This document shows positions 3,760 to 45,814 of a DNA stretch of 64,000 bases, piece after piece. The position numbers and the translations under genes are program-made. Numbering within the stretch: the stretch's first letter is position 1; every line of letters begins with the position of its first letter. Below the pieces are notes generated by a model. It saw nothing but the letters and a program-made list of their open reading frames with translations, searched no databases and was not told the DNA's origin. The DNA comes from Thermoanaerobaculia bacterium (GTDB lineage Bacteria > Acidobacteriota > Thermoanaerobaculia > Multivoradales > UBA5704): NCBI GenBank assembly GCA_044226625.1, contig JBGAGQ010000010.1, forward strand, positions 1-64,000, in the 5' to 3' direction.

Positions 3760-8052
<4,293 letters not shown>

Positions 8053-24024: not shown

Positions 24025-25035
24025 ATGACATCCGTCGAAACCGCCGCGCCGAGCGCGAACGAGGTTCCTCGCGCTACCGCCGTGGCCGCGATCGAGGCCC
24101 GCGATCTGAAGAAGACCTACCGGGGTGGCGTCGAAGCCCTCCGCGGTCTCTCATTCTCCGTGCGCGAGGGCGAGGTGTTCGGCCTGCTCGGCCCGAACGG
24201 CGCCGGCAAGTCGACCGCGGTGAAGATCCTCACCACGCTTTCCGAGCCGACCGGCGGCACCGGTTCCGTGTTCGGCTTCGACGTGGTCCGAGACGCGCGC
24301 GAGGTGCGCCGCCGGATCGGTTGCGTTGCCCAGGCGTCGGGAGTCGATTTCGCGGCCACCGGCCGGGAGAACCTGGAGCTCCAGGGAAAGCTGTTTCGCA
24401 TCCCAGCGCCCGAGCTCCGGCGCCGCGTCGACGAGCTGCTCGAGCTGTTCGCCTTGACGGAGGCGGCGCATCGCGCGACCCGCACCTATTCGGGCGGCAT
24501 GAAGCGCCGACTCGACGTGGCGATGGGGCTGATCCACCGGCCGAAGGTGCTCTTCCTCGACGAGCCGACCACCGGCCTCGATCCGGAAAGCCGCTCGGTC
24601 CTCTGGCGCGAGGTCCGCCGTCTCGCCACCGGAGGCCTCACCCTCCTCCTCACCACCCACTACCTCGAAGAGGCGGATCAGCTCGCCGACCGGCTGGCGA
24701 TCGTGGACCGAGGGCGGGTCGTGGCCGAAGGGACGCCCGACGGCCTGAAGTCGCAACTCGCCGGGGACCGAATTTCGCTCCAGCTCGTCGAGCCGGGAAA
24801 GAGCGCGGAAGCGCGCGATCTCGTCGCGACCCTTCCGGGAGTCACCGGCGCATTGGCCGACGCCGAGCGCGCGGGGCGCGTCTACGCCCACGTGCGGGAC
24901 GGCGCGCACGACCTGCCCGTCCTGCTGGCCGCGCTGGAGCGCGGCGGGATCGTCGTCTCGGGCGCCTCGCTCACCCGCCCGTCGCTCGACGACGTCTACC
25001 TGAACGCCACCGGCCACGCCTACCAGGAGAGCTGA
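24025..25035 (+). CDS. ABC exporter ATP-binding protein (DrrA-like)
   Basis: GPNGAGKST, YSGGMKRRLD, LFLDEPTTGLD, TTHYLEEA, PSLDDVYL. Confidence 0.95.
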   Translation: MTSVETAAPSANEVPRATAVAAIEARDLKKTYRGGVEALRGLSFSVREGEVFGLLGPNGAGKSTAVKILTTLSEPTGGTGSVFGFDVVRDAREVRRRIGCVAQASGVDFAATGRENLELQGKLFRIPAPELRRRVDELLELFALTEAAHRATRTYSGGMKRRLDVAMGLIHRPKVLFLDEPTTGLDPESRSVLWREVRRLATGGLTLLLTTHYLEEADQLADRLAIVDRGRVVAEGTPDGLKSQLAGDRISLQLVEPGKSAEARDLVATLPGVTGALADAERAGRVYAHVRDGAHDLPVLLAALERGGIVVSGASLTRPSLDDVYLNATGHAYQES

Positions 25036-25038
25036 CGC

Positions 25039-25809
25039 ATGGACTTCCTCCGCGACACCGTCATCCTCTTCCTGCGACTGGTTCGCGCGACCGCGCGCAT
25101 GCCCGTGTTCGTCATCCTTTCGGTCGCCCAGCCGATCCTCTGGGTTGCGATGTTCGGTGCCTTGTTCCGCTCGGTGGTGGAGATCCCCGGCTTCGGCGCC
25201 ACGTCCTACGTTCAGTTCCTGGCGCCGGGTGTCGCGATCATGACCGCGCTGTTCGGCGCCGCCCACTCCGGCCTCGGCATGCTCGCCGACATCGAGCGCG
25301 GCGTGCTCGACCGGCTGCTCGCGACCCCGGCCGCCCGCGGTTCGATCATCGCCGCCCGGCTGCTCAACTCCGGCGTGCAGGTCTTCCTGCAAGCCGGACT
25401 CATCGTCGGCGTCTCGATGCTCCTCGGTGCCAAGGCGAAAGGCGGGGCGGTCGGCATCCTCCTGGTCATGCTGTCCGCGGCGCTCCTCGGCGCCGCCGTC
25501 GCGGCTTTCTCGAACGCGATGGCGCTCCTCGCGCGGCGTCAGGAGACGGTGATCGCGATCATGAATTTCGTCATCCTGCCCGCCACGTTCACCTCTTCGA
25601 TGCTCATGTCCGCGAACCTGATGCCCGGTTGGGTGCAGCAGGCGGCGAACGTGAACCCGGTCAACTGGGCGATCGTCGCCGCGCGCGACGGATTCGAAGG
25701 GGCCGCGCCGCACGAGCTCGCGACGCGCCTCGCGCTGCTCCTCGCGTTCGCGGTGGTCTGCGGCCTTCTCGCCACCGGATCGTTCGGCCGCTACCGGCGC
25801 GCGATGTAG
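25039..25809 (+). CDS. ABC-2 permease (DrrB-like)
   Basis: QPILW, SYVQFLAPG, DIERGVLDRLLATP, NPVNW. Confidence 0.93.
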   Translation: MDFLRDTVILFLRLVRATARMPVFVILSVAQPILWVAMFGALFRSVVEIPGFGATSYVQFLAPGVAIMTALFGAAHSGLGMLADIERGVLDRLLATPAARGSIIAARLLNSGVQVFLQAGLIVGVSMLLGAKAKGGAVGILLVMLSAALLGAAVAAFSNAMALLARRQETVIAIMNFVILPATFTSSMLMSANLMPGWVQQAANVNPVNWAIVAARDGFEGAAPHELATRLALLLAFAVVCGLLATGSFGRYRRAM

Positions 25810-25821
25810 GCTCTCGGGCGG

Positions 25822-26685
25822 ATGAACGGACGCCCTCGCCGTAACGGTCGGATCTCGGCGCGCAGCTCGCGGCCGGGGATCTTCTCGCTCGCGATCCTCG
25901 CGATCTGCCTCCTTGCGGCGCTCGGGATCGGGGTTTCGGCGGTCGCCACGCGCCCTGCCTTCGCGGCCGAGGTTCCGACCCCTCCCGCCCCGAGCCGTTG
26001 GGTCACCGACGGGGTCGGCTTCCTCTCTCCAGATACCCGCGGCCGGATCGACGCCCAGCTCGAAAGCTACGAGCGGAGCACCGGCCATCAGGTGCTGGTT
26101 TGGATCGGCTCGACGGTCGGCGACGACGCGGTCGAGGATTGGACGATCCGCACCTTCACCGCCTGGAAGGTGGGGCGAAAAGGGATCGACGACGGCCTCG
26201 TCCTGTTCGTCTTTTCCGACGATCGCAAGGTGCGCGTCGAGGTCGGCTACGGTCTCGAAGAGCGGGTCCCCGACATCGTCGCCAACCGGATCATCCAGGA
26301 CCGGATCCTCCCCAAGATCCGCGCGGGCGACCGGGACGGCGCGATCGCCGAAGGCGTCGCGGGCCTGATCGCGGCGATCGAAGGGGGAGCGGGAGCCGCG
26401 GGAGGGCTCGCCTCCGGGGCGGACGACGGCTCCGCCACACCCGAGCGCCCGGCGGTCCAGCGGGAGAGCGAGCCGCTCTCGCTCGGCCAGAAGATCCTTT
26501 ACACGCTGATCGCGATCGGCATCCTGATCTTCGTCATCACCCACCCGCAACTCGCGTTCTGGCTCCTGCTCCAGATCCTCTCCGGATCGTCGGGAGGTGG
26601 GGGTGGGGGGCGCGGAGGCGGAGGAGGCGGCTGGAGCGGTGGCGGAGGGCGCGGCGGTGGCGGCGGCGCCACGGGATCGTGGTGA
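25822..26685 (+). CDS. TPM domain protein with Gly-rich C-terminal tail (YgcG-like)
   Basis: WVTDGVGFLS, WKVGRKGIDDG, RVEVGYGLE, GGGGATGSW. Confidence 0.92.
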   Translation: MNGRPRRNGRISARSSRPGIFSLAILAICLLAALGIGVSAVATRPAFAAEVPTPPAPSRWVTDGVGFLSPDTRGRIDAQLESYERSTGHQVLVWIGSTVGDDAVEDWTIRTFTAWKVGRKGIDDGLVLFVFSDDRKVRVEVGYGLEERVPDIVANRIIQDRILPKIRAGDRDGAIAEGVAGLIAAIEGGAGAAGGLASGADDGSATPERPAVQRESEPLSLGQKILYTLIAIGILIFVITHPQLAFWLLLQILSGSSGGGGGGRGGGGGGWSGGGGRGGGGGATGSW

Positions 26686-26698
26686 TGGAGGTGATCCG

Positions 26699-27142
26699 AT
26701 GATCCTCACCCGGCGAGCGCTGTACCGAGCGATCGACAGACACCGCGTCGAGCAGGCGATCGAGACAGCCGAGTCGATCACCTCCGGGGAGGTCCGCGTC
26801 GCCGTCTCGCCCCTCTTCTGGGGCGACGTCCGAGCCGTTGCCGAGGCCACGTTCGACAAGCTCGGCATGCGGGCGACGGCGGAGCGCAACGGCGTCCTGC
26901 TGTTCGTCGTTCCCTCGCGTCGCCGCTTCGCGGTGATCGGCGATGCCGGGATCCACGAAAAGGTCCACCCGGGCTTCTGGGACGAGGTCGCCGCGGAGAT
27001 CTCCGGCCGCTTCCGGTCGGGAGACTTCACCGGGGGGATCGTCGGCGCGCTCGAACGTCTCTCTGCCGAGCTCGCGACCCACTTCCCGCGCCGAGACGAC
27101 GACGTGGACGAGCTGCCGAACGCGGTGGAGTTCCTCGACTAG
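26699..27142 (+). CDS. TPM domain protein
   Basis: AIETAESITSGEVRV, TAERNGVLL, IGDAGIH, DELPN; GGAGG RBS before ATG 26699. Confidence 0.9.
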   Translation: MILTRRALYRAIDRHRVEQAIETAESITSGEVRVAVSPLFWGDVRAVAEATFDKLGMRATAERNGVLLFVVPSRRRFAVIGDAGIHEKVHPGFWDEVAAEISGRFRSGDFTGGIVGALERLSAELATHFPRRDDDVDELPNAVEFLD

Positions 27143-27636: not shown

Positions 27637-30504
27637 ATGAGCACCTCTCTCACCCCCGAGCAGCGCGCCCGTTTGCGCATTGACGCCGCCCTCGCCGAGT
27701 CCGGCTGGGTGGTGCAGAGCCGGGACGAGATCAACCTCCAAAAGGCGCAAGGTGTTGCCGTTCGCGAGCTGCCGCTGCGCTCAGGGCACGGTCGGGTGGA
27801 CTATCTGCTCTTCGTCGACGAGCGCCCGGTGGGCGTGCTGGAAGCAAAACCGGAGGGGCACGCCCTCTCGGGCGCCGAACCGCAGACCCGGCTGTATGCC
27901 GCTGGAATTCCCACTTTCATGACGGCGCCGGTCGATCCGCTACCGTTCCTCTACCGTTCCACCGGCGCTCTCACCGCGTTTACCAACCTGCTCGATCCGG
28001 TGCCGAAAAGTCGGTCGATCTTCCAGATCCACCGGCCCGAAACGCTCGCCGAATGGCTGGTCGATCCGCCCGTCGACCCGGCACGGGACATGGTCTTCGA
28101 CCGGGACTCCCGAAGCTCCGGTCGTCCGGTGCCCGGCTCGCTCCGAAGCCGCCTTCGCGCGCTGCCGGAAGCCGACCTTCCGGGTCTCTGGCCGAACCAG
28201 CGCGAGGCGATCCTCGGCCTGGAGACGTCGCTCCGCGAGAACCGCCCCCGTGCGCTGATTCAAATGGCGACCGGCAGCGGCAAGACGATCGCCGCGATTA
28301 CCGCGGCGTATCGGCTGATCAAGCACGGCGGCGCCCGGCGCGTCCTCTTCCTGGTCGATCGCACGAACCTGGGCGAGCAGGCCGAGACCGCCTTCTCGAG
28401 CTACGAGACGCCGGACGACCATCGCAAGCTCACCGAGCTGTACAACGTCCAGCGCCTCGCCGGAAGCTCGATCGGCTCGGCGAGCAAGATCGTCATCACG
28501 ACGGTCCAGAGGCTCTACTCGATTCTCAAGGGCGAGCCCTATCTCGACCCGGAGGAGGAAGAGGGTTCTCAGTTCGACCGCGCGGGAACCGCCGCGGCCG
28601 AGGCGCTGCCGGTGGTCTACAATCCGAAGATCCCGCCGGAGTTTTTCGACGTGATTTTCATCGACGAGTGTCACCGGTCGATCTATTCGGTCTGGCGCCA
28701 GGTGCTCGAATATTTCGACGCCTATCTGATCGGCCTCACCGCGACTCCGGCCGCCCACACCTACGGCTTCTTCGAGCAGAATGTGGTGATGCAGTACACC
28801 CACGAGCGCGCCGTGGCCGACGGCGTGAACGTGCCGTTCGACGTCTACCGCATCCGCACGAAGATCACCGAACAGGGCGGAACGATCGAGGCGAGCTTCG
28901 AGCCGACCCTCGGTCTTCGCAATCGCGCGCAGGGGACGACGCGTTGGATTCGCCCCGACCAGCCGGTCGCCTACACGGGCGGCGACCTCGACCGCACGGT
29001 CTATGCGCCGGACCAAATCCGCCTGATCGCCCGCACCTTCCGCGACCGGCTGCCGACGGAGATCTTCCCCGGCCGCCGCGAGGTGCCGAAGACGTTGATC
29101 TACGCCAAGGACGACCGCCACGCCGAGGACATCGTGGACGCGTTTCGCCAGGAGTTCGGCCAGGGCGACGAGTTCTGCCAGAAGATCACCTACAAGACGA
29201 CGGGCAAGAAGCCGAAGGATCTGATCCAGGAGTTCCGCACGGCCTTTTATCCCCGCATCGCGGTGACGGTGGATCTCGTGGCGACCGGCACCGACATTCG
29301 CCCGATCGAGATCGTGATGTTTCTCCGCGCTGTCCATAGCCGGGTCTTTTTCGAGCAGATGAAAGGGCGCGGCGTGCGGACGATCCAGCCGGACGAGCTT
29401 CAAGGGGTGACGCCGTCGGCGCAGGAGAAGAGCCATTTCCTGCTGATCGATTGCGTCGGAGTCTGCGAGGCCGAACTCTCCGATTCGCGCCCGCTCGAAC
29501 GCAAACGCCTGGTGAGCCTCGCTTCGCTGCTCGAGCAGATCGCCCTCGGCACGCGCGACGAAGACGTCCATTCGAGCGTTGCGGCCCGGCTGCTTCGGCT
29601 CGATCGTGAGCTTTCGGCGAGGCGCGATCCGGCGGCGCGGGAGCGGCTTCGGGAGCTCGCCGGAGGAGCAACGCTCGCGGAGATCGCGGGCGAGATGATC
29701 CGCGCCCAGGACGACGACGCGGCGATCGAGGCGGCGCGCGCGGACCTTCGCCTCTCGGCCGAGGAGGATCCTCCGGAAGAAGCGGTCGAAGCGGCGGCGG
29801 CGCGTCTGGCGCGCGAGGCGGCCCAGCCGCTCGCGACGCGGCCCCTGCTGCGAAAGGCGATCGTCGAAGCGCGAAAGGATCTCGATCAGATGGTGGACGC
29901 GGTAAGCCGCGACGAGCTGCTCGAGGCGGGCGCTTCTCCCGAAGCGAAGGACCGGGCGCGCGCGCTGGTCCAGGATTTCGAGTCGTTCCTCGCGGAGAAC
30001 CAGGATGAGATCGAGGCGCTCCAGTTTTTCTATTCGGTCGAGTACCGGCACCGGCTCCGTTTCGACGACATTCAAAGCCTCGCAAATGCGATCGGATCGC
30101 CCCCGCGCTCCTGGACGCCGGAGCGCCTCTGGCGCGCCTATTCGGTGCTCGAACAGGATCGCGTGCGCGGCGCGTCGTCGAAGCGGCTGTTGACGGACGT
30201 GGTGTCGCTGGTCCGCTTCGCGCTGCACCAGGACGAGGAGCTGGTGCCGTTCCCGGAGCGCGTGGAGCGACGGTTCCGGGTCTGGCTGCAACAGCAGGAG
30301 ACGGCGGGGCGGAGCTTTACGGAGAGCCAGCGGAAGTGGCTGGAGATGATGCGCGACCACATCGGAACGAGCCTCGCGGTCGAGATGGACGATTTTTCCT
30401 ATACGCCCTTCGTCGGCGAGGGTGGGCTGGGCAAGGCGCGGCAGGTTTTCGGAGAGGAGTTGGGTGAGGTGATGCGGGAGTTGAATGAGGTGTTGGCGGC
30501 GTGA
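27637..30504 (+). CDS. hsdR: Type I restriction enzyme subunit R (EcoEI/EcoAI-like)
   Basis: Nuclease DYLL...LEAK, QMATGSGKT, DECHRS, GLTATP, QMKGRG, EcoEI-like C-terminal domain. Confidence 0.95.
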   Translation: MSTSLTPEQRARLRIDAALAESGWVVQSRDEINLQKAQGVAVRELPLRSGHGRVDYLLFVDERPVGVLEAKPEGHALSGAEPQTRLYAAGIPTFMTAPVDPLPFLYRSTGALTAFTNLLDPVPKSRSIFQIHRPETLAEWLVDPPVDPARDMVFDRDSRSSGRPVPGSLRSRLRALPEADLPGLWPNQREAILGLETSLRENRPRALIQMATGSGKTIAAITAAYRLIKHGGARRVLFLVDRTNLGEQAETAFSSYETPDDHRKLTELYNVQRLAGSSIGSASKIVITTVQRLYSILKGEPYLDPEEEEGSQFDRAGTAAAEALPVVYNPKIPPEFFDVIFIDECHRSIYSVWRQVLEYFDAYLIGLTATPAAHTYGFFEQNVVMQYTHERAVADGVNVPFDVYRIRTKITEQGGTIEASFEPTLGLRNRAQGTTRWIRPDQPVAYTGGDLDRTVYAPDQIRLIARTFRDRLPTEIFPGRREVPKTLIYAKDDRHAEDIVDAFRQEFGQGDEFCQKITYKTTGKKPKDLIQEFRTAFYPRIAVTVDLVATGTDIRPIEIVMFLRAVHSRVFFEQMKGRGVRTIQPDELQGVTPSAQEKSHFLLIDCVGVCEAELSDSRPLERKRLVSLASLLEQIALGTRDEDVHSSVAARLLRLDRELSARRDPAARERLRELAGGATLAEIAGEMIRAQDDDAAIEAARADLRLSAEEDPPEEAVEAAAARLAREAAQPLATRPLLRKAIVEARKDLDQMVDAVSRDELLEAGASPEAKDRARALVQDFESFLAENQDEIEALQFFYSVEYRHRLRFDDIQSLANAIGSPPRSWTPERLWRAYSVLEQDRVRGASSKRLLTDVVSLVRFALHQDEELVPFPERVERRFRVWLQQQETAGRSFTESQRKWLEMMRDHIGTSLAVEMDDFSYTPFVGEGGLGKARQVFGEELGEVMRELNEVLAA

Positions 30505-32063
30505 GGAAGGAATTACCCAATACATGGGTGTTGGCTAGACTTAGCGAGGTGGGTGATTTTCACTGTGGTCAGTCCCCGACGACTTCAACAGTTAATTCCA
30601 TCGGGATTGGCGTTCCGTATGTGTCGGGTCCTGAGCAGTGGGACGGGGCGCGCGTCCATCTCACGAAGTGGACATCAGATGCGAGGCGCGTAGCGCCTGA
30701 TGGGTCGATCTTCATTACAGTCAAGGGCGCAGGCGTAGGAACGGTTTTCCCGGGAACTCGCGCGGCGATCGGCCGTGATATCTACGCCTTCTCTCCGCTC
30801 GGAGAGATCTCGCCTCGATATCTCGAGCACGGACTCCGTTGGACGATTCACGAGATCGTCAAGAAGGCCGTGGGGGATATTCCCGGTCTCTCGAAGGGCC
30901 AACTGTCCGATCACTGCTTACCCCTTGCGCCTTCAAGCGAACAGCGCCGAATCGTAGATGTCTTGGACTCCTACCTCACCCGCCTCGACGTCGCCGAGCA
31001 AGCCCTCCTCCGCGCCCAAGCGAATCTGAGGCGCTACCGCGCCTCGGTTCTCAAAGCGGCCGTCGAAGGCCGCCTCGTTATCACCGAGGCGGAGCTGGCG
31101 CGTCAGGAAGGACGAGAGTACGAGCCGGCGTCGGTGCTGCTCGCGAGAATCCTCGCCGAACGAAAGCTCCGATGGGAAAAAGCCGAGCTGGCGAAGATGA
31201 AGGCGAAGGGGATCGTTCCGAAGGACGATCGATGGAAGGCCCGATACGAGGAGCCGGTGGGGCCGGATTTGAGCGGGCTGCCGGATTTGCCGGAGGGGTG
31301 GTGCTGGACGACGGTGGAGGCTCTATTTTGGAATGCAGGGTATGGAACCTCACAGAAGTGCAGCCTCGAAGGCCAAGGGCCTGTAGTGCTTCGAATTCCG
31401 AACATCCGGAACCAAAGGATTGACCTCGCGGACTTGAAGTACGCCACAGATGCCGAACAACTGTCAGATGAAGGGGAAGTTGGTGCGGGTGATTTTCTCT
31501 TTATTCGGACTAACGGTAGCAAGGAGCTTATCGGCCGCGGCGCATTGGTAGGCGCTGATTTACGGGAGGCATGCCATTTCGCTTCCTACTTAATTCGACT
31601 CAGGCTCGTATTAGTGGATGCCTCAGCTGAGTGGTTTGCTCGCGCTTGGCATTCTGAGCCGGTACGTTCTCAGCTCATGCGAGATGCGGCATCGAGCGCA
31701 GGGCAACACAACGTGAGTCTAGGCTCCGCTTGCTCCTTCGTGCTGCCTCTTCCACCTATGGCCGAACAAGCTCGAATCGTCACCGAGTTGGCTCGCCTGG
31801 AATCAGTGGCTGAGGGAGCCGAGGCAAATCTGCTGGAGGCGGTTGCCCACATCGCCCGCCTTCGCCAATCCATCCTCAAGTGGGCCTTCGAAGGGAAGCT
31901 CGTCGACCAAGATCCGAACGACGAGCCAGCGGCGGAGCTGCTGGCGCGGATTCGCGCGGAGCGAGAGAAGTCGGGGGCGCAAAGGAGCCAATCTCGGCGC
32001 GCGGGGCGCCAACCGCGGGCGGAAGCGGAGCGCCGAGCCCGATCTTCGCGTTCCGGGGCGTGA
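30501..32063 (+). CDS. hsdS: Type I restriction enzyme specificity subunit S
   Basis: LPNTW/LPEGWCW, PLAPSSEQRRIV, PLPPMAEQARIV, LRQSILKWAFEGKLVDQDPNDEPA; two TRDs; GTGA overlap with hsdR. Confidence 0.93.
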   Translation: MRKELPNTWVLARLSEVGDFHCGQSPTTSTVNSIGIGVPYVSGPEQWDGARVHLTKWTSDARRVAPDGSIFITVKGAGVGTVFPGTRAAIGRDIYAFSPLGEISPRYLEHGLRWTIHEIVKKAVGDIPGLSKGQLSDHCLPLAPSSEQRRIVDVLDSYLTRLDVAEQALLRAQANLRRYRASVLKAAVEGRLVITEAELARQEGREYEPASVLLARILAERKLRWEKAELAKMKAKGIVPKDDRWKARYEEPVGPDLSGLPDLPEGWCWTTVEALFWNAGYGTSQKCSLEGQGPVVLRIPNIRNQRIDLADLKYATDAEQLSDEGEVGAGDFLFIRTNGSKELIGRGALVGADLREACHFASYLIRLRLVLVDASAEWFARAWHSEPVRSQLMRDAASSAGQHNVSLGSACSFVLPLPPMAEQARIVTELARLESVAEGAEANLLEAVAHIARLRQSILKWAFEGKLVDQDPNDEPAAELLARIRAEREKSGAQRSQSRRAGRQPRAEAERRARSSRSGA

Positions 32064-32381
32064 AGCGACTTCCCGCGGCCGACCGACTCTTCCGGCGCCG
32101 CAAAGCGACTTCCCGCCGCGGAAACACGTTCTCGGAGCCAGGAAGTCACTTCCTGCGCTGGGAAGTCACTTTCTGGGCTGGGAAGTCACTTCTTGGCGTA
32201 GGAAGTCATTTCGTGGTGCTGAGAAGTCACTTCCTGAGCTCGGAAGTCACTTCCTGGCTCGGGAAGTCACTTCCGGCTGTGGGAAGTCACTTCCGGCTGT
32301 GGGAAGTCACTTCCGGCTGTGGGAAGTCACTTCCTGGCTCGGGAAGTCACTTCCTGGCCTGAGAAGTCACTTCCTGGACTG
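32061..32381. repeat. 20-bp tandem array with palindromic core GGAAGT-C-ACTTCC and 7-bp variable linkers
   Basis: 12 clear units starting at 32141, 32161, 32181, 32201, 32222, 32242, 32262, 32282, 32302, 32322, 32342, 32362, plus about 4 degenerate in-phase units at 32061-32140. Confidence 0.95.
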
Positions 32382-32422
32382 TACGCGCTGGATTCCTGAG
32401 CCGAGATAAGCTCCCGCTCCCG

Positions 32423-33922
32423 ATGGCCGAAACCTCCGATCGTTTGGTCCAAAAACTCTGGAGCTACTGCCAGGTTCTGCGCGACGACGGCTTGTCGTAC
32501 CAGGATTACCTGGAGCAGCTCACCTTCCTCCTCTTCCTGAAGATGGCCGACGAGCGGGAACGGCTGACCGGCGAAACGCAGCCGATCCCCAAAGGCTTCC
32601 GTTGGAAAGACCTCGCGGCGCCGCGGATGGAAGGGGTCGCGCTCGAAGACCACTACCGGAAGACGCTCGCCCGGCTCGGGCGCGAAGGGGGGATGCTCGG
32701 CCTGATCTTCCGCAAGGCGCAGAACAAGATCCAGGATCCCGCCAAGCTGCGCCGGCTGATCGTCGACCTGATCGGTCAGGACGACTGGCTCTCCATGACC
32801 GCCGACGTCAAAGGCGACGCCTACGAGGGGCTGCTCGAACGAAACGCCCAGGACGTCAAAGGAGGGGCCGGCCAGTACTTCACACCGCGCCCGTTGATCG
32901 ACGCGATCGTCGACTGCATCCAGCCGCGCCCGGGCGAAGTGATCGTCGATCCGGCTTGTGGCACCGGTGGATTTCTGCTCGCGGCTTACGGCTACGTCGC
33001 CGGAAACTACAGCCTCGACAAGAAGCAGAAGAGCCACCTGCGCTACGACGCGCTACGGGGCGTCGAGCTCGTCGACGGCGTCGCACGGCTGTGCGCGATG
33101 AACCTGCTCCTCCATGGCGTGGGGCCGACCGACGACGAGCGCGAGCCGCCGATTGCGATCGACGACGCCTTGCGGAACGAGCCCGAGGCGCACGCCGACG
33201 TCGTGCTCACCAACCCGCCGTTCGGCAAGAAGTCGAGCATCACCGTGATCAACGAGGAGGGGGACGCGGATCGCCAGTCTCTCGCCTACAACCGGCCCGA
33301 CTTCTGGACCACCACCTCGAACAAGCAGCTCAACTTCGTCCAGCACGTCAAATCGGTCTTGAAGATCCACGGACGCGCCGCGGTCGTGGTTCCCGACAAC
33401 GTGCTGTTCGAAGGGGGAGCGGGCGAGACCGTCCGCCGCCGGCTGCTCCACGACACGGAGCTCCACACCGTCCTGCGGCTGCCCACCGGTATCTTCTACG
33501 CGCAGGGGGTGAAGGCGAACGTCCTCTTCTTCGACCGCAAGCCGGGAAGCGACAAGCCTTGGACCCGCGAGGTCTGGTTCTACGACCTTCGGACCAACAA
33601 GCACTTCACGCTCAAGGAGCGGCGCCTCATCCGCGCCGATCTCGACGAGTTCGTCGCCTGCTTCAAGCCGGGCGAGCGCGCGAAGCGCAAGGCCACCTGG
33701 TCCGAAAAGAACCCCGAGGGGCGGTTCCGTCGCTACGGCTACGACGAGCTGATCCAGCGCGACAAGGTGAGCCTCGACCTCTTCTGGTTGCGCGACGAGA
33801 GCCTCGAAGACGCGGCGAACCTTCCCGACCCGCACCTCCTCGCCGCCGAGATCGCCGACGATCTGCGCGCCGCCTTGGAGCAGATCGAGGACGTTCTCGC
33901 CGACCTGCGCGCGCGGGCTTGA
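32423..33922 (+). CDS. hsdM: Type I restriction-modification N6-adenine methyltransferase subunit M
   Basis: LVQKLWSYCQVLRDDG, GAGQYFTPR, DPACGTGGFL, LTNPPFG, LRLPTGIFYAQGV. Confidence 0.97.
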   Translation: MAETSDRLVQKLWSYCQVLRDDGLSYQDYLEQLTFLLFLKMADERERLTGETQPIPKGFRWKDLAAPRMEGVALEDHYRKTLARLGREGGMLGLIFRKAQNKIQDPAKLRRLIVDLIGQDDWLSMTADVKGDAYEGLLERNAQDVKGGAGQYFTPRPLIDAIVDCIQPRPGEVIVDPACGTGGFLLAAYGYVAGNYSLDKKQKSHLRYDALRGVELVDGVARLCAMNLLLHGVGPTDDEREPPIAIDDALRNEPEAHADVVLTNPPFGKKSSITVINEEGDADRQSLAYNRPDFWTTTSNKQLNFVQHVKSVLKIHGRAAVVVPDNVLFEGGAGETVRRRLLHDTELHTVLRLPTGIFYAQGVKANVLFFDRKPGSDKPWTREVWFYDLRTNKHFTLKERRLIRADLDEFVACFKPGERAKRKATWSEKNPEGRFRRYGYDELIQRDKVSLDLFWLRDESLEDAANLPDPHLLAAEIADDLRAALEQIEDVLADLRARA

Positions 33923-44634: not shown

Positions 44635-44719
44635 GCGCGGGTCGAGCCGCGCCGGAGTATACGGCCCGGCAGCCGGCGCTAGAATCTCGCGCGAACCGCC
44701 CCCCAAGGAGCCGAGCACC

Positions 44720-45814
44720 ATGCCGAGCCAGCTGAGCCGCCGCGATCTCGCCGGATTTCTCGCCGCCCTTCCTCTCGCCGGTCTCGCTCCGCGCGTCGCC
44801 GCGGCGGCCGAGAAGGAAGCGCGGAAACCGGTGTCGAAACCGGCCCCGGATGCGAAAGGCCCGAAGCCGATCCTCAAGCCGGCGAAGCTCTCGCCCGGCG
44901 ACACGGTGGGGATGATCCTTCCGGCGACGCTCGAGTTCACTCCGAGCCTGATCGACCTGGGCAAAGAGCAGCTGGAGGCCCTCGGCTTCAAGGTGAAGAT
45001 CGGCGCACACGCCCGCGACCGTTACGGCTCGTTCGCCGGGACCGACGCGAACCGCGCCGCCGACGTCAACGGGATGTTCGCCGATCCGGAGGTGAAGGGG
45101 ATCTTCTGTTACGCCGGAGGGTGGGGGACGCCGCGCCTCCTTCCACTTCTCGATTTCGAGCTGATCCGGAAGAACCCGAAGGTGCTGGTCGGCTACAGCG
45201 ACATCACGGCGCTCTTGAACGCGATCCGGCAGGAGACCGGGCTCGTCACCTTCCACGGCCCGGTCGCGGCCTCCAATCTGCGCCCCTACTCGGTCGACAA
45301 CCTTCGACGCGCCGTGATGTCCACCGAGCCGCTCGGCCTCCTCGAAAACCCGCCCAAGGAGGACGACGAGCTGGTCGCTCGCACGTTCCGCCTGCGGAAG
45401 ATCCGCGGCGGCAGGGCGCGCGGCCGACTGGTCGGCGGCAACCTCACGCTGTTTTCCGCGCTCCAGGGGACGCCCTGGCAGATCGACACCCGGGGCGCGA
45501 TCGTCTTGCTCGAGGACATCCACGAGGCGCCCTATCGGGTCGATCGGATGCTCACCCAAATCGCCCAGGGAGGGGCTTTCGAGCACGCCGCGGCGGTCGT
45601 CTTCGGCTACTGCACCGAGTGCGATGCGGATGGCCCCGTTTCGTTCAACATCGAGGAGATCCTCGACGACCACCTCGCCGGCCTCGGGATCCCCGTTCTC
45701 TCCGGCCTCGCCTTCGGCCACTTGCCGAAGATGCTCACCCTACCGCTCGGCCTCGAGGCGGATCTCGACGTCGACGCCGGGACGATCTCGATCGCCGAGG
45801 CGGCGGTGGTTTGA
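44720..45814 (+). CDS. S66 LD-carboxypeptidase with a Tat signal
   Basis: SRRDL Tat motif, GYSDITAL, FHGP, GGNL, LLEDI...RVDRML, FGH; AAGGAG RBS. Confidence 0.92.
   Translation: MPSQLSRRDLAGFLAALPLAGLAPRVAAAAEKEARKPVSKPAPDAKGPKPILKPAKLSPGDTVGMILPATLEFTPSLIDLGKEQLEALGFKVKIGAHARDRYGSFAGTDANRAADVNGMFADPEVKGIFCYAGGWGTPRLLPLLDFELIRKNPKVLVGYSDITALLNAIRQETGLVTFHGPVAASNLRPYSVDNLRRAVMSTEPLGLLENPPKEDDELVARTFRLRKIRGGRARGRLVGGNLTLFSALQGTPWQIDTRGAIVLLEDIHEAPYRVDRMLTQIAQGGAFEHAAAVVFGYCTECDADGPVSFNIEEILDDHLAGLGIPVLSGLAFGHLPKMLTLPLGLEADLDVDAGTISIAEAAVV

Follow-up and report, generated by a model that had tools for sequence, protein, structure and literature searches.

Plasmid iterons and repeated centromeres, such as sopC of F, parC of R1 and the KorB/ParB operators, consist of tandem sites about two helical turns apart and lie beside the gene of a small dimeric binder. 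In REPIN-RAYT systems, each repeat family is tied to a 'home' gene flanked by its own repeat type, and many copies are orphans. BOX elements of Streptococcus pneumoniae are intergenic, have the order boxA - boxB(n) - boxC, and are predicted to form stem-loops if transcribed (PMC3049150). The controller (C) proteins of restriction-modification (R-M) systems are dimers that bind adjacent palindromic operators (PMC2504287).

The window analysed here is a stretch of 64,000 nucleotides on contig C121 of the metagenome-assembled genome (MAG; G000) of an uncultured acidobacterium, a member of the Thermoanaerobaculia, in which a phased array of palindromes lies between hsdS and hsdM of a type I R-M operon. 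The reading that we prefer, with a rough probability of 0.42, is that this is an orphan, operator-like array of putative sites for a dimeric DNA binder encoded by a gene cassette, which recombination has spread and homogenised. On this view the window array would belong, as an orphan, to F1, a family of phased palindromic arrays confined to the genus, and each unit might be a site for a dimeric DNA-binding protein of a multi-copy cassette. The sequence data establish how the array is built, how arrays are dispersed and turn over, and that they go with a gene family; from these we infer protein binding, the identity of the binder and any effect on hsdM. A role specific to R-M is unlikely.

Anatomy of the array

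Pfam searches on the flanking genes confirmed that the array sits between hsdS and hsdM of a type I operon (Table 1), as an earlier note made from the sequence had proposed. They recognised hsdR, hsdS and hsdM only, with no HTH protein, C gene or Rep/ParA/ParB gene beside the array. The end of hsdR overlaps the start of hsdS by 4 nt. About 48 final codons of hsdS fall inside a dispersed 'head' segment, and the hsdS C-terminus (..ILKWAFEGKLVDQDPNDEPAAELLARIRAERE..) is common to the hsdS of three relatives (G006, G007 and G004). The 'tail' ends in ~20 nt of native hsdM leader; this leader, GATAAGCTCCC(R)CTCCC(G)ATG, also lies upstream of hsdM in these relatives.

Table 1. Features of the type I R-M operon and its palindromic array, in window coordinates
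Feature	Position	Strand	Description
hsdR	27637..30504	+	955 aa, type I restriction subunit; Pfam EcoEI_R_C 1e-38, ResIII 2e-35, Helicase_C, HSDR_N
hsdS	30501..32063	+	520 aa specificity subunit; Pfam Methylase_S 8e-11, a single stretch at residues 6-163
'Head'	31919..32140	+	hsdS 3' end with old decayed 20/40-bp units; recurs at five other genome loci with differing 5' ends (whole-genome blastn)
Clear decayed units	32061..32113	+	two in-phase units of GAAGCGACTTCC type, 80 and 40 bp ahead of the first core; retained in dispersed heads
F1 array	32141..32381	+	12 units of 20 bp (one of 21 bp), core GGAAGT-S-ACTTCC and linker TGNNCYG (TRF, unit logo)
'Tail'	32375..32421	+	last linker and hsdM leader (..GTACGCGCTGGATTCCTGAGCCGAGATAAGCTCCCGCTCCC); copied along with the array to C14 and C84
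hsdM	32423..33922	+	499 aa methyltransferase subunit; Pfam N6_Mtase 9e-64, HsdM_N 3.5e-10

Rereading the sequence returned the identical 12 linkers listed before, one of them 8 nt long, and three units with the linker GGCTGTG are identical. TRF reported a period of 20 with 12.0 copies in 32141-32381 (83% matches, score 264). The claim of perfect cores throughout was too strong: all 12 cores are present, but only seven are exactly GGAAGTCACTTCC, four have one mismatch and one has two. With up to two mismatches, GGAAGTCACTTCC gave 24 matches on both strands, whereas dinucleotide-preserving shuffles gave a mean of 1.22 and at most 5, and none of 100 reached 24. Of some four in-phase decayed copies thought to lie at the hsdS end, two are clear (TGAAGCGACTTCC at 32061 and AAAGCGACTTCC at ~32101) and the other two are weak; on the decayed stretch, TRF found only an 18-bp repeat with 2.9 copies. 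The gap of 41 nt between the array end (32381) and the hsdM ATG (32423) is as first described. CRISPR repeats measure ~23-50 bp and have unique spacers of like length; the 13-bp core and 7-nt linkers, in which 2-4 nt vary, agree with the original judgement that this is not a CRISPR.

A logo of the F1 unit, built from 131 units of 11 arrays, carries 1.1-1.9 bits at positions 1-15 and 20 and 0.15-0.44 bits at positions 16-17. In each unit, a single 13-bp palindrome, GGAAGT-S-ACTTCC, is preceded by a fixed G and followed by a fixed TG, which leaves 2-4 bases free. The centre is C or G (71/29), and a 13-bp palindrome with such a centre resembles KorB-type operators. With a period of 20, neighbouring palindromes are spaced by two helical turns and face the same side of the helix. 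The combination of a conserved site with a free spacer has the profile of a binding-site array, unlike evenly decaying duplicates. Core positions 6 and 8 co-vary (T..A to C..G). Asymmetric hybrid cores (GGATAGCCGCTTCC) also make arrays of 8-10 units, so strict two-fold symmetry is not needed, which counts against a dimeric binder. A heterodimer on the hybrid cores was considered and rejected, because G004 has hybrid arrays yet only one module type was detected in it.

Dispersal, turnover and an associated gene cassette

The F1 core is scattered over the genome. Allowing one mismatch, it has 132+105 matches compared with 2+2 for the reversed-pattern control, and it forms about a dozen arrays beside housekeeping genes, in both orientations. 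At 17 other F1/F2 loci, a scan of 35 proteins encoded on the flanks turned up no R-M or defence protein. Such a genome-wide scatter without a link to R-M or defence genes is what the earlier note had named as its refutation, and its suggestions of a decoy or self-target array, a site of hsdS exchange or a dedicated hsdM switch therefore find no support.

F1 belongs to a larger class of 20/21-bp intergenic arrays that occurs in this family of Thermoanaerobaculia. G000 alone contains 97 arrays with a period of 20/21 bp or a multiple thereof, whose units form at least 13 sequence clusters at 75% identity. If TRF rows of 4 or more copies are counted, 33 have period 20, 42 have period 21 and 18 have period 42, while any period off the 20/21 series occurs at most 4 times. 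Of the 57 arrays that have a period of 20/21 and 5 or more copies, 33 carry inverted arms of at least 5, versus 9.7% of shuffled units. Nearly all class arrays (98/104) lie outside the ORFs predicted by a crude caller, between convergent, divergent and co-directional genes alike; such a distribution is not regulon-like and speaks against an operator reading. A tetramer shared across families, CTGG/CCAG, was discarded as a candidate because it is not enriched: it occurs in 5 of the 13 representatives of the clusters, where shuffles average 3.0 and 48 of 300 reach 5. The two-unit pattern had no match in viral_contigs, searched as a check for viral origin. The same pattern is present in 16 metagenome stretches. 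The lineage thus keeps about a hundred intergenic arrays in which the unit length of two helical turns is fixed and the sequences are not, and our literature search found no paper on such a set in one lineage.

Five further loci carry copies of a segment of ~500 bp (31919-32421) that comprises the hsdS 3' end, the array and what follows up to the hsdM ATG. In blastn searches of the whole genome, the head matched C14 (82%/222 bp), C84 (82%/196 bp), C44 (78%/222 bp), C126 (83%/157 bp) and C91 (78-83%), these copies containing frameshifted fragments of the hsdS C-terminus, and the tail matched C14 (92%/40 bp) and C84 (90%/41 bp). The head is therefore common to six loci and the tail to three, both being native R-M flanks. 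The F1 arrays at C1, C9, C40, C58 and C125 have neither, and most class arrays lack shared flanks. Comparing filled and empty sites by eye, we recognised no terminal inverted repeats or target-site duplications. Array positions coincide with synteny breaks, and contigs C44 and C91 terminate within F1 arrays. The idea of a recombination hotspot is in this sense borne out by the copied segment and the synteny breaks, but not for the exchange of hsdS. Arrays of this kind move flanking DNA among loci and mark points of rearrangement, and so shape genome structure and break MAG assemblies. For annotation, the hsdS 3' tail and the five 'hsdS-like' fragments elsewhere should not be taken as separate R-M remnants.

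The F1 family is restricted to the genus, and from one species to the next its units are replaced at corresponding loci. Only G000 has an array in the SBP/cheX spacer; three relatives that keep both genes (G003, G002 and G004) are array-free, and another neighbour is present at this locus in G007 and G006. Upstream of yebC, three of six genomes have arrays, with 12 units in G000 and 5 in G001. Downstream of a cation-efflux gene, arrays were found in four of seven genomes, and G006 has decayed units only. The DAHP-synthase flank on C84 was left out because the matches of relatives were 59-70% identical and orthology was unsafe. The counts of F1, GGAAGCSGCTTCC and F8 cores also differ, being 87/0/11 in G000, 7/2/71 in G003, 1/31/50 in G006 and 1/19/0 in G005. 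The F8 core is GATAGC-S-GCTATC.

Such turnover is what the main rival to the operator-like reading would predict. It holds that the array is a self-propagating, hairpin-prone minisatellite without a partner in trans and without an R-M function. Slipped-strand pairing and template switching, together with ectopic gene conversion, would seed, expand and homogenise the arrays, hairpin-templated repair would keep the palindromes perfect, and the regions upstream of S, described below, would be no more than frequent sources or sinks. We consider this possible, though doubtful. As in minisatellites or VNTRs, the non-coding units run head to tail and copy number differs among related genomes at one locus. 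The gain and loss of arrays at orthologous sites (SBP/cheX, yebC), flanks co-converted to five loci, a dominant core variant that differs per genome, the free amplification of asymmetric hybrid cores and the two contigs ending within arrays all fit it, as do the periods of 60, 63, 80 and 84 bp in other arrays and the runs of identical units, which are typical of unequal exchange. A neutral array should nevertheless vary evenly along its unit, yet nearly all variation falls on 2-4 linker bases while 16 positions are fixed across 11 loci, and slippage alone leaves unexplained why at least 13 unrelated units share the 20/21-bp period.

In the operator-like reading, too, arrays lengthen or shorten by slippage or unequal exchange, as the three identical window units and the higher-order periods of 60-84 bp elsewhere show. 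Ectopic recombination homogenises them and spreads them among loci, and in this genome it has also brought sequence of the hsdS 3' end and of the hsdM leader to five further positions.

What minisatellite dynamics do not account for is the association of the arrays with a gene. At the F1 'home' locus on C125, the order is X (DCoH/Pterin_4a-like), F1 array, S (small, helical) and Y (XRE-type HTH), and neither a Rep nor a Par family is present there. All three genes are on the minus strand, X at C125:66574-67053, S at C125:65657-66091 and Y at C125:64852-65538. The S family has 19 copies in the genome (HMM of alignment A1). An array of the 20/21/42/63 type ends within 450 bp upstream of 15 of these 19 and within 1.1 kb of 17, with a different unit each time, compared with 10 of 600 random genes in the control. 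Across the genus, arrays of the F1/F8 continuum lie upstream at 13 of 16 loci of C125-type S orthologues and paralogues, mostly after X. In G014, from another genus, the link was seen at all eight loci viewed, and it is weak in other genera (G009 0/7, G013 1/6, G026 2/9). Among genomes with S, G000 has its 97 arrays, G014 has 14 per 400 kb and G009 about 4 per 400 kb. Genomes without S (E<=1e-6) had no array of at least 4 copies with period 20/21 in 400 kb (G032), 200 kb (G037) and 157 kb (G045), an absence that a minisatellite also leaves unexplained, although the comparison is of three genomes with three, all related. Gene and adjoining array are co-inherited, so their co-variation does not show recognition. 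Moreover, of the 76 arrays that measure 100 bp or more, only 12 are within 1.5 kb of an S, X, Y, Z or W gene; the other 64, the window array among them, lie far off, as a minisatellite would have it, and contig C121 has no match to the S or Y profiles. The arrays are nonetheless statistically tied to S, an unannotated and widespread family of small proteins, and the reason for a unit of 20/21 bp can on that account be put to a bench test that needs three small proteins and one oligonucleotide of 20 bp.

S is a helical protein of 120-145 aa without a nuclease or transposase domain. It is predicted to pair with itself. The homodimer model has an ipSAE of 0.71 against 0.00 for the best of three controls. 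This mark was reached by 20 of 30 proteins whose solved structures are pairs of one chain and by 1 of 23 solved as single chains, counts that are approximate here because we supplied our own alignment; contacts agree to at least 94% between runs, with a partner pLDDT of at least 82. S has no match in Pfam, NCBIfam, PHROG or PADLOC, no Foldseek match in the PDB at E<=0.001 and no recognisable DNA-binding domain. Its relatives form 1281 representative clusters at E<=0.001, every one named 'hypothetical', and the protein atlas likewise returned only 'hypothetical protein' clusters. The N-terminal domain of Y is modelled as a five-helix XRE HTH fold (pLDDT >90 over residues 11-60), and its best Foldseek rows are C.BclI, C.Esp1396I and C.AhdI (E 0.03-0.2, TM 0.71-0.79 on target). 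Y may accordingly be an HTH protein, a weak assignment given these E-values and a whole-model mean pLDDT of 69.9; by sequence, the best relevant solved structure is HipB(Lp), whose E-value of 0.91 is too weak alone. A Y-type gene comes after S in only 3 of the 19 cases. Pfam found nothing in protein Z, and it is by inspection only that Z looks like an HTH/RHH protein and that a TPR protein beside three cassettes appears linked. The earlier suggestion of an operator- or iteron-like array thus fares best as a generic reading, with its conserved core, free linker and class arrays upstream of a family predicted to dimerise, and loses its R-M specificity.

Possible effects on the operon

The array in the R-M operon would be an old passenger, held in three species at the orthologous hsdS-hsdM spacer; G000 has 12 units there, G006 has 7-8, and G007 has about 12 of mixed type. 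If bound, it would separate hsdR-hsdS from hsdM as a roadblock or insulator, or serve hsdM as an element lying upstream. Arrays are held in five of the six hsdS-hsdM spacers examined in four genomes of the genus (G000:C121, G006:C183, G007:C110, G007:C720 and, with a 21-bp family, G006:C13), with at least three unit types, and on this count a local effect on the operon may exist. The sixth case is G004, in which hsdS and hsdM are intact, the hsdM leader is the same and there is no array. The hsdM orthologues of G006 and G004 are 96% and 95% identical.

Instead of binding a protein, the array might work as RNA. Transcribed within the hsdR-hsdS-hsdM message, it would form one long imperfect hairpin, or else many small ones across the unit junctions with 6-bp stems and 7-nt loops. 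The part of the message before it would thereby be stabilised or processed and hsdM expression uncoupled, as proposed for REP/BIME and BOX. For 32040-32430, the predicted fold has an energy of -213.2 kcal/mol, where shuffles average -155.8 (z -8.8; none of 100 shuffles equal), but arrays of palindromes always fold well, so that this z-score follows from the sequence and is not independent. The flanking genes are co-directional, and a consensus scan of 31500-32900, which covers sigma-70 promoters only, found no sigma-70-like promoter, nor were intrinsic terminators found. The variable bases fall at the two dyad centres, the would-be hairpin loops; positions 6 and 8, however, change together even though the hairpin would put them in a loop. 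BOX elements, with their predicted stem-loops when transcribed, are reported to influence the expression of neighbouring genes (PMC3049150). Against a role as RNA, F1 occurs in both orientations and between convergent and divergent genes, no Rfam family reached its gathering score in 31000-33500 (seven sub-threshold miRNA-hairpin matches had E 0.012-0.42), and hsdM of G004 has the same leader without an array. We find this explanation rather improbable.

To an element that specifically controls R-M we give a slim chance. Either a controller-type HTH protein would use the array as its operator, or the number of units would act as a switch; in both cases hsdM expression would be set relative to hsdR/hsdS, and the copies elsewhere would be by-products. 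The five of six spacers, the position of the array directly before the hsdM leader and the structural nearness of Y from the F1 home cassette to R-M controller proteins would suit it. The array-bearing R-M loci are, however, related by descent and do not represent five independent events, any minimal XRE domain would resemble C proteins as much as Y does (E 0.03-0.2), the operon has no HTH gene, 16 of the 17 F1/F2 loci in the genome have no R-M gene nearby, arrays have been retained for as long at other loci (as downstream of the cation-efflux gene in four of seven genomes), and G004 does without an array beside an hsdM that is 95% identical. An R-M-specific operator or decoy, if true, would be a new kind of control for type I systems, but the reading is unsupported.

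Support from reads was sought in Logan contigs. Sixteen runs were found for 31600-32800, none of them listed as RNA. Three records of run X1 (31600-32170, 32142-32271 and 32322-32800) match both array edges exactly and leave 32272-32321 unbridged, so that the edges are upheld and the count of identical middle units comes from the assembly; in four Logan-contig runs, short repeat contigs of all arrays stack on the window array. Although the MAG has 133 contigs and 5.5% contamination, two of its contigs end within F1 arrays and no Logan contig bridges that gap, misassembly of the metagenome bin as the source of the array or its copy number is barely credible, since the independent X1 contigs match both edges and the unique linkers with zero mismatches, the same arrangement was independently assembled in G006 and G007, and arrays at other loci lie within long contigs.

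Comparison with known systems

The array resembles BOX (PMC3049150) in being an interspersed intergenic repeat with an apparent head, variable tandem modules and an apparent tail, a stem-loop prediction and a proposed influence on neighbouring genes. Here, however, head and tail do not belong to an element but are native R-M sequence, from the hsdS 3' end and the hsdM leader, that was carried along. The palindromic units of 20 bp are unrelated to BOX in sequence, the phylum is another one and most arrays have no shared flanks. With the operators of C proteins (PMC2504287), the array shares palindromic sites side by side and a place inside an R-M operon, and Y is structurally nearest to C.BclI and C.Esp1396I. 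C operators are two or three sites directly upstream of a type II C gene, whereas 12 sites lie here in a type I system without a C gene. Nor are the sites confined to R-M promoters, since the same ones occur at 10 or more non-R-M loci.

Like iterons and repeated centromeres, the array has a period of two helical turns and a conserved site with a variable spacer. Unlike them, about a hundred arrays of at least 13 clusters lie on a chromosome, no Rep, ParA, ParB, ParR or ParG gene adjoins, and most arrays are far from any candidate binder. REP/BIME and REPIN sequences are likewise short palindromic units dispersed in intergenic DNA, with several families per genome (PMC3116915). The home gene S differs from that of REPIN-RAYT in lacking a nuclease or transposase, and the units form strict head-to-tail arrays of fixed period and not singlets or doublets. 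No Y1/HUH transposase gene flanked by the repeat was found; the single PF01797 (Y1_Tnp) match in the genome, at C79:2876-3097 with 30 bits, lies on an array-free contig.

A more speculative extension, which we hold rather unlikely as a whole, is that arrays and S cassette form one undescribed system. Each S paralogue, with a DCoH-like X partner and in some cases an XRE-HTH or other small binder, would own private palindromic sites, and a dimer footprint of two helical turns would set the 20/21-bp unit of each array family irrespective of its sequence. Seeded arrays, including the one in the type I R-M operon, would then be protein-coated landmarks (roadblocks, insulators or recombination sites) co-evolving with their binder. 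If true, this would be the first testable account of arrays with fixed period and free sequence, and the S/array system would stand beside REP-RAYT or centromere-ParB pairs, minus the nuclease or the ATPase.

Palindromic arrays in the genome and the genus

In the 6.6-Mb genome that holds the window (G000; 67.7% G+C, 133 contigs), the core GGAAGT-S-ACTTCC of the array family F1 occurs 132+105 times with at most one mismatch, versus 2+2 times for a reversed control. The matches form about a dozen arrays of 10–19 units at 20-bp spacing, found elsewhere on contigs C1, C9, C14, C40, C44, C58, C84, C91, C125 and C126, with shorter ones on other contigs; a sister family repeats every 21 bp (GGGAACTCACTTCCC). 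Among tandem repeats of at least four copies, TRF reported 33 rows of period 20, 42 of period 21 and 18 of period 42, and at most four rows for each period outside the 20/21 series. Merging gave 97 arrays of the 20/21 type of at least 80 bp, and 98 of 104 merged arrays lay outside the ORFs predicted by a crude caller. The 57 arrays with five or more copies and a period of 20 or 21 grouped into 13 clusters (75% circular identity), and 33 of these consensus units had inverted arms of 5 bp or longer, compared with 9.7% of shuffled units.

A profile of 131 F1 units from 11 arrays is conserved at positions 1–15 and 20 (1.1–1.9 bits), almost unconstrained at 16–17 (0.15–0.44 bits) and intermediate at 18–19, thereby defining the unit as G-GGAAGT-S-ACTTCC-TG plus 2–4 free bases. 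At the palindrome centre, 71% of units have C and 29% have G, and the free bases fall on both dyad axes of the lattice. Such a profile is that of a site plus spacer; hairpin loops would fit as well.

A two-unit F1 pattern with at most two mismatches was present in five of the seven other genomes of the genus, and in none of 29 genomes from other genera of the family or 24 from other families of the order. Exact matches amounted to three stretches in two genomes among 185,579 species representatives, 16 stretches in metagenomes and none in viral contigs; the relatives with the repeat are titled Thermoanaerobaculia or Acidobacteriota MAGs. Core variants, including the related family F8 (GATAGC-S-GCTATC), differ by palindrome-keeping changes (T6/A8 to C6/G8; GA/TC to AT/AT in the arms), and asymmetric hybrid cores likewise build arrays.

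Exact core matches per genome of the genus
Genome	F1	GGAAGCSGCTTCC	F8 (GATAGCSGCTATC)	Hybrid
G000	87	0	11	14
G001	12	0	57	19
G003	7	2	71	29
G007	7	24	43	29
G006	1	31	50	27
G005	1	19	0	0
G004	0	10	34	3
G002	0	3	28	6

Individual sites turn over between species. Upstream of yebC, F1 units are found in G000 (12) and G001 (5) and two F8 units in G003, with no array in G002, G004 or G005. The spacer between the convergent SBP and cheX genes carries an array in G000 alone when compared with five relatives: G003, G002 and G004 retain both genes without one, and G007 and G006 have a different neighbour. Downstream of a cation-efflux gene, G001, G003 and G004 carry hybrid arrays, G006 has decayed units and G000 an inverted F1 array; G002 and G007 lack an array there.

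A small protein family beside the arrays

Clustering the ORFs nearest to 76 arrays yielded a single recurrent small protein, S (120–145 aa). Its profile (17 paralogues, alignment A1) finds 19 copies in G000. In 15 of them, an array of period 20, 21, 42 or 63 ends no more than 450 bp before the start, and in 17 no more than 1.1 kb before it, the unit sequence being different for each; the same procedure gave an upstream array for 10 of 600 random genes. The F1 family has a home of this kind on C125, between X, a Pterin_4a/DCoH-like protein (1e-7), and S, which is followed by Y; an S copy proper to the sister family lies on C14, 88 bp from the array. Across the genus, arrays of the F1/F8 continuum lie upstream at 13 of 16 C125-type S loci; of the other three, one shows a single unit and two lack units.

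S matches no family of Pfam, NCBIfam, PHROGs or PADLOC. At E<=0.001, a library of 1.84 billion proteins contains 1281 representative clusters of it, the named members all being "hypothetical". The predicted fold (pLDDT 91.7, pTM 0.55), a helical hairpin with a basic tail, has no structural neighbours in the PDB at E<=0.001. S is predicted to form a homodimer: ipSAE reached 0.71, versus 0.00 for the best of three controls, a mark attained by 20 of 30 proteins whose solved structures are pairs of one chain and by 1 of 23 whose solved structures are single chains. The run used a custom alignment of S, so these counts are approximate. Contact agreement between runs was at least 94% and partner pLDDT at least 82. 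In the model of Y, an N-terminal domain of five helices is predicted with confidence; structure comparison places it closest to XRE-type HTH proteins, with the R-M controllers C.BclI and C.Esp1396I ranking first (E 0.03–0.2, TM 0.71–0.79 on the target). X adjoins S in 6 of its 19 copies, and a DCoH-like protein beside a helical-hairpin dimer may parallel DCoH, which binds the dimerisation bundle of HNF1. Cassettes of a second type have Z (126–172 aa) after S and, on the opposite strand, W (214–230 aa); neither matches Pfam, and Z looks ribbon-helix-helix-like by eye only.

With a probability of roughly 0.4, we tentatively read the F1 array as an operator-like row of palindromic dimer sites for a putative binder of the F1 cassette, with orphan arrays that might have spread by recombination. 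The operator and recombination proposals of the earlier note are partly supported in this generic form. Ectopic spread is suggested by the flanks of the window's array: its head segment recurs with 78–83% identity (blastn), and with differing 5' ends, beside F1 arrays of C14, C84, C44, C126 and C91, and the 40–47 nt 3' of the array, up to the base preceding the hsdM ATG, are found again at C14 and C84. The copies hold frameshifted pieces of the HsdS C-terminus. This C-terminus (..ILKWAFEG+LVDQDPNDEPAAELLARIRA..) is native to hsdS because it is also present in G004, G006 and G007; therefore, R-M flanks moved to other array loci rather than the reverse. At the C126 recipient locus, relatives already have an array, and in G000 the array is reversed and the left neighbour changed. 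We take the copying as probable ectopic recombination or gene conversion begun within arrays; no terminal inverted repeats or target duplications were recognised.

A minisatellite that propagates itself and has no protein partner is the strongest rival, somewhat less probable than the operator-like reading. The link between S and the arrays has its limits. Of 76 arrays that are 100 bp or longer, only 12 have an S, X, Y, Z or W gene within 1.5 kb, Y follows S in only 3 of 19 copies, and the window's array is an orphan, with no S- or Y-profile match on its contig, C121. In other genera the S-array link holds for 8 of 8 (G014), 2 of 9 (G026, three more at 500–800 bp), 1 of 6 (G013) and 0 of 7 (G009). 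S and arrays co-occur in G000 (19 copies; 97 arrays), G014 (16; 14 per 400 kb) and G009 (7; about 4 per 400 kb), and S-free genomes have two weak arrays per 400 kb, none with at least four copies (G032), or none in 200 kb (G037) and 157 kb (G045), a pattern resting on few, related genomes. By S count only, G013 and G026 have 47 and 25 copies, and the profile has no match in G040, G042 and G056.

The array between hsdS and hsdM

The array and linkers agree with the listing of the earlier note, as does the 41-nt gap to the hsdM ATG. All twelve units stand, seven of them with the exact core; of about four decayed in-phase copies upstream, two are clear and two weak. Allowing two mismatches, GGAAGTCACTTCC matches the window 24 times on both strands, whereas shuffles averaged 1.22 (largest 5; 0 of 100 reached 24).

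Coordinates of features (C121 positions where no contig is named; head, dispersed segment of the hsdS 3' end plus decayed units)
Feature	Location	Remarks
GGAGCG-type repeat	26608-26668	6/9/24 bp, TRF score 66; at overlap of long ORFs 24151-27030 (minus) and 26597-27142 (plus); probably coding low-complexity sequence
hsdR	27637-30504	Pfam
hsdS	30501-32063	Pfam; 4-nt overlap with hsdR; long product (520 aa), single Methylase_S stretch at residues 6-163; last ~30 residues a basic low-complexity tail encoded by head
Head	31919-32140	final 145 nt of hsdS plus decayed units
F1 array	32141-32381	TRF: 12 units, period 20, 83% matches, score 264
hsdM	32423-33922	Pfam
CRISPR array	96520-102281	true CRISPR, beyond the window; repeat GTCGCCCTCCGCGCGAGGGCGTGGATTGAAAC, period about 65-67 bp; among TRF rows, to be subtracted from 60/63-bp array counts
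X-array-S-Y cassettes	C125:64852-67053; C109:47780-50410; C76:30572-32462	C125: F1 array 66272-66508, S 65657-66091 minus
S-Z-W cassettes	C123:5135-6427; C46:22770-24065; C57:7492-8855; C13:4569-6051
TPR protein (430-560 aa)	C125:67800-69460; C13:8835-10511; C46:19435-20733	adjoins three S cassettes; C125 copy by Pfam: SNAP 6e-7, several TPR families at E 2e-5 or weaker
Largest array	C124:7860-8606	35.8 units of 21 bp, GTGGTGGGCTGGGCCAGACCA; begins 75 bp past Y-like gene
Y-like gene	C124:7312-7785	profile E 3e-6
G/C-rich hairpin repeat	C44:about 5000-5080; C126:about 44700-44890; TRF rows C86:172840, C4:56024, C78:15538, C114:14525	CCCTCCCC..GCTTGCGGGGGGAGG; dispersed; abuts truncated head copies in two cases
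Antisense DUF4351 ORF	L075 2036-2593 (G006:C13); L072 (G004:C170); L071 (G007:C720)	E 1.7e-5; between hsdS and hsdM of three related R-M loci; missing from the window's operon

That the spacer acts as a structured RNA is improbable. RNA 32040-32430 folds at -213 kcal/mol (z -8.8), but a strong fold follows from any palindrome array, and no Rfam family, promoter consensus or terminator consensus was found around it.

A control element specific to R-M is less probable still. Arrays occupy five of six hsdS-to-hsdM spacers in four genomes: the orthologous spacers of G000 (C121), G006 (C183; 7–8 units of GGAAGCCGCTTCC, HsdM 96% identical) and G007 (C110; about 10 hybrid and a few F1 units), and those of G006:C13 (about 15 units of an unrelated 21-bp family, then the DUF4351 ORF) and G007:C720 (hybrid units, truncated hsdS). 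G004 has hsdS, the DUF4351 ORF and hsdM with no array in the spacer. This recurrence is persistence and does not prove an R-M function, because the loci share descent and other loci have retained arrays over an equal time. At 17 other loci of F1 and its sister family, none of 35 flanking proteins scanned belonged to an R-M or defence family; they include peptidases, a solute-binding protein, CheX, PBP1, isoamylase, YebC, DAHP synthase, a cation-efflux protein and UvrA. The R-M-specific interpretation is thus unsupported, and the scatter among non-R-M genes is the outcome that the earlier note itself had named as refuting its reading.

An assembly artefact is scarcely credible, since both array edges are matched exactly by Logan contigs of run X1, although the twelve-unit count is an assembly figure alone, without independent confirmation because these contigs fail to bridge the three identical middle units.

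Comparison with known systems

As proposed earlier, the array is not a CRISPR; it fails the CRISPR-defining features among those testable, and likewise those of REP-RAYT, MITEs and C-boxes. It has the formal features of both a minisatellite and an iteron-like site array. A literature search found no description of such arrays or of Thermoanaerobaculia repeats within the collection searched. Plasmid iterons and sopC-type centromeres are among the nearest known systems. The nearest also include pneumococcal BOX elements (PMC3049150), REP/REPIN-RAYT systems (PMC3116915) and C-protein operators (PMC2504287). The arrays are interspersed palindromic tandem repeats, which are of a known kind, and their association with genes is new and testable.
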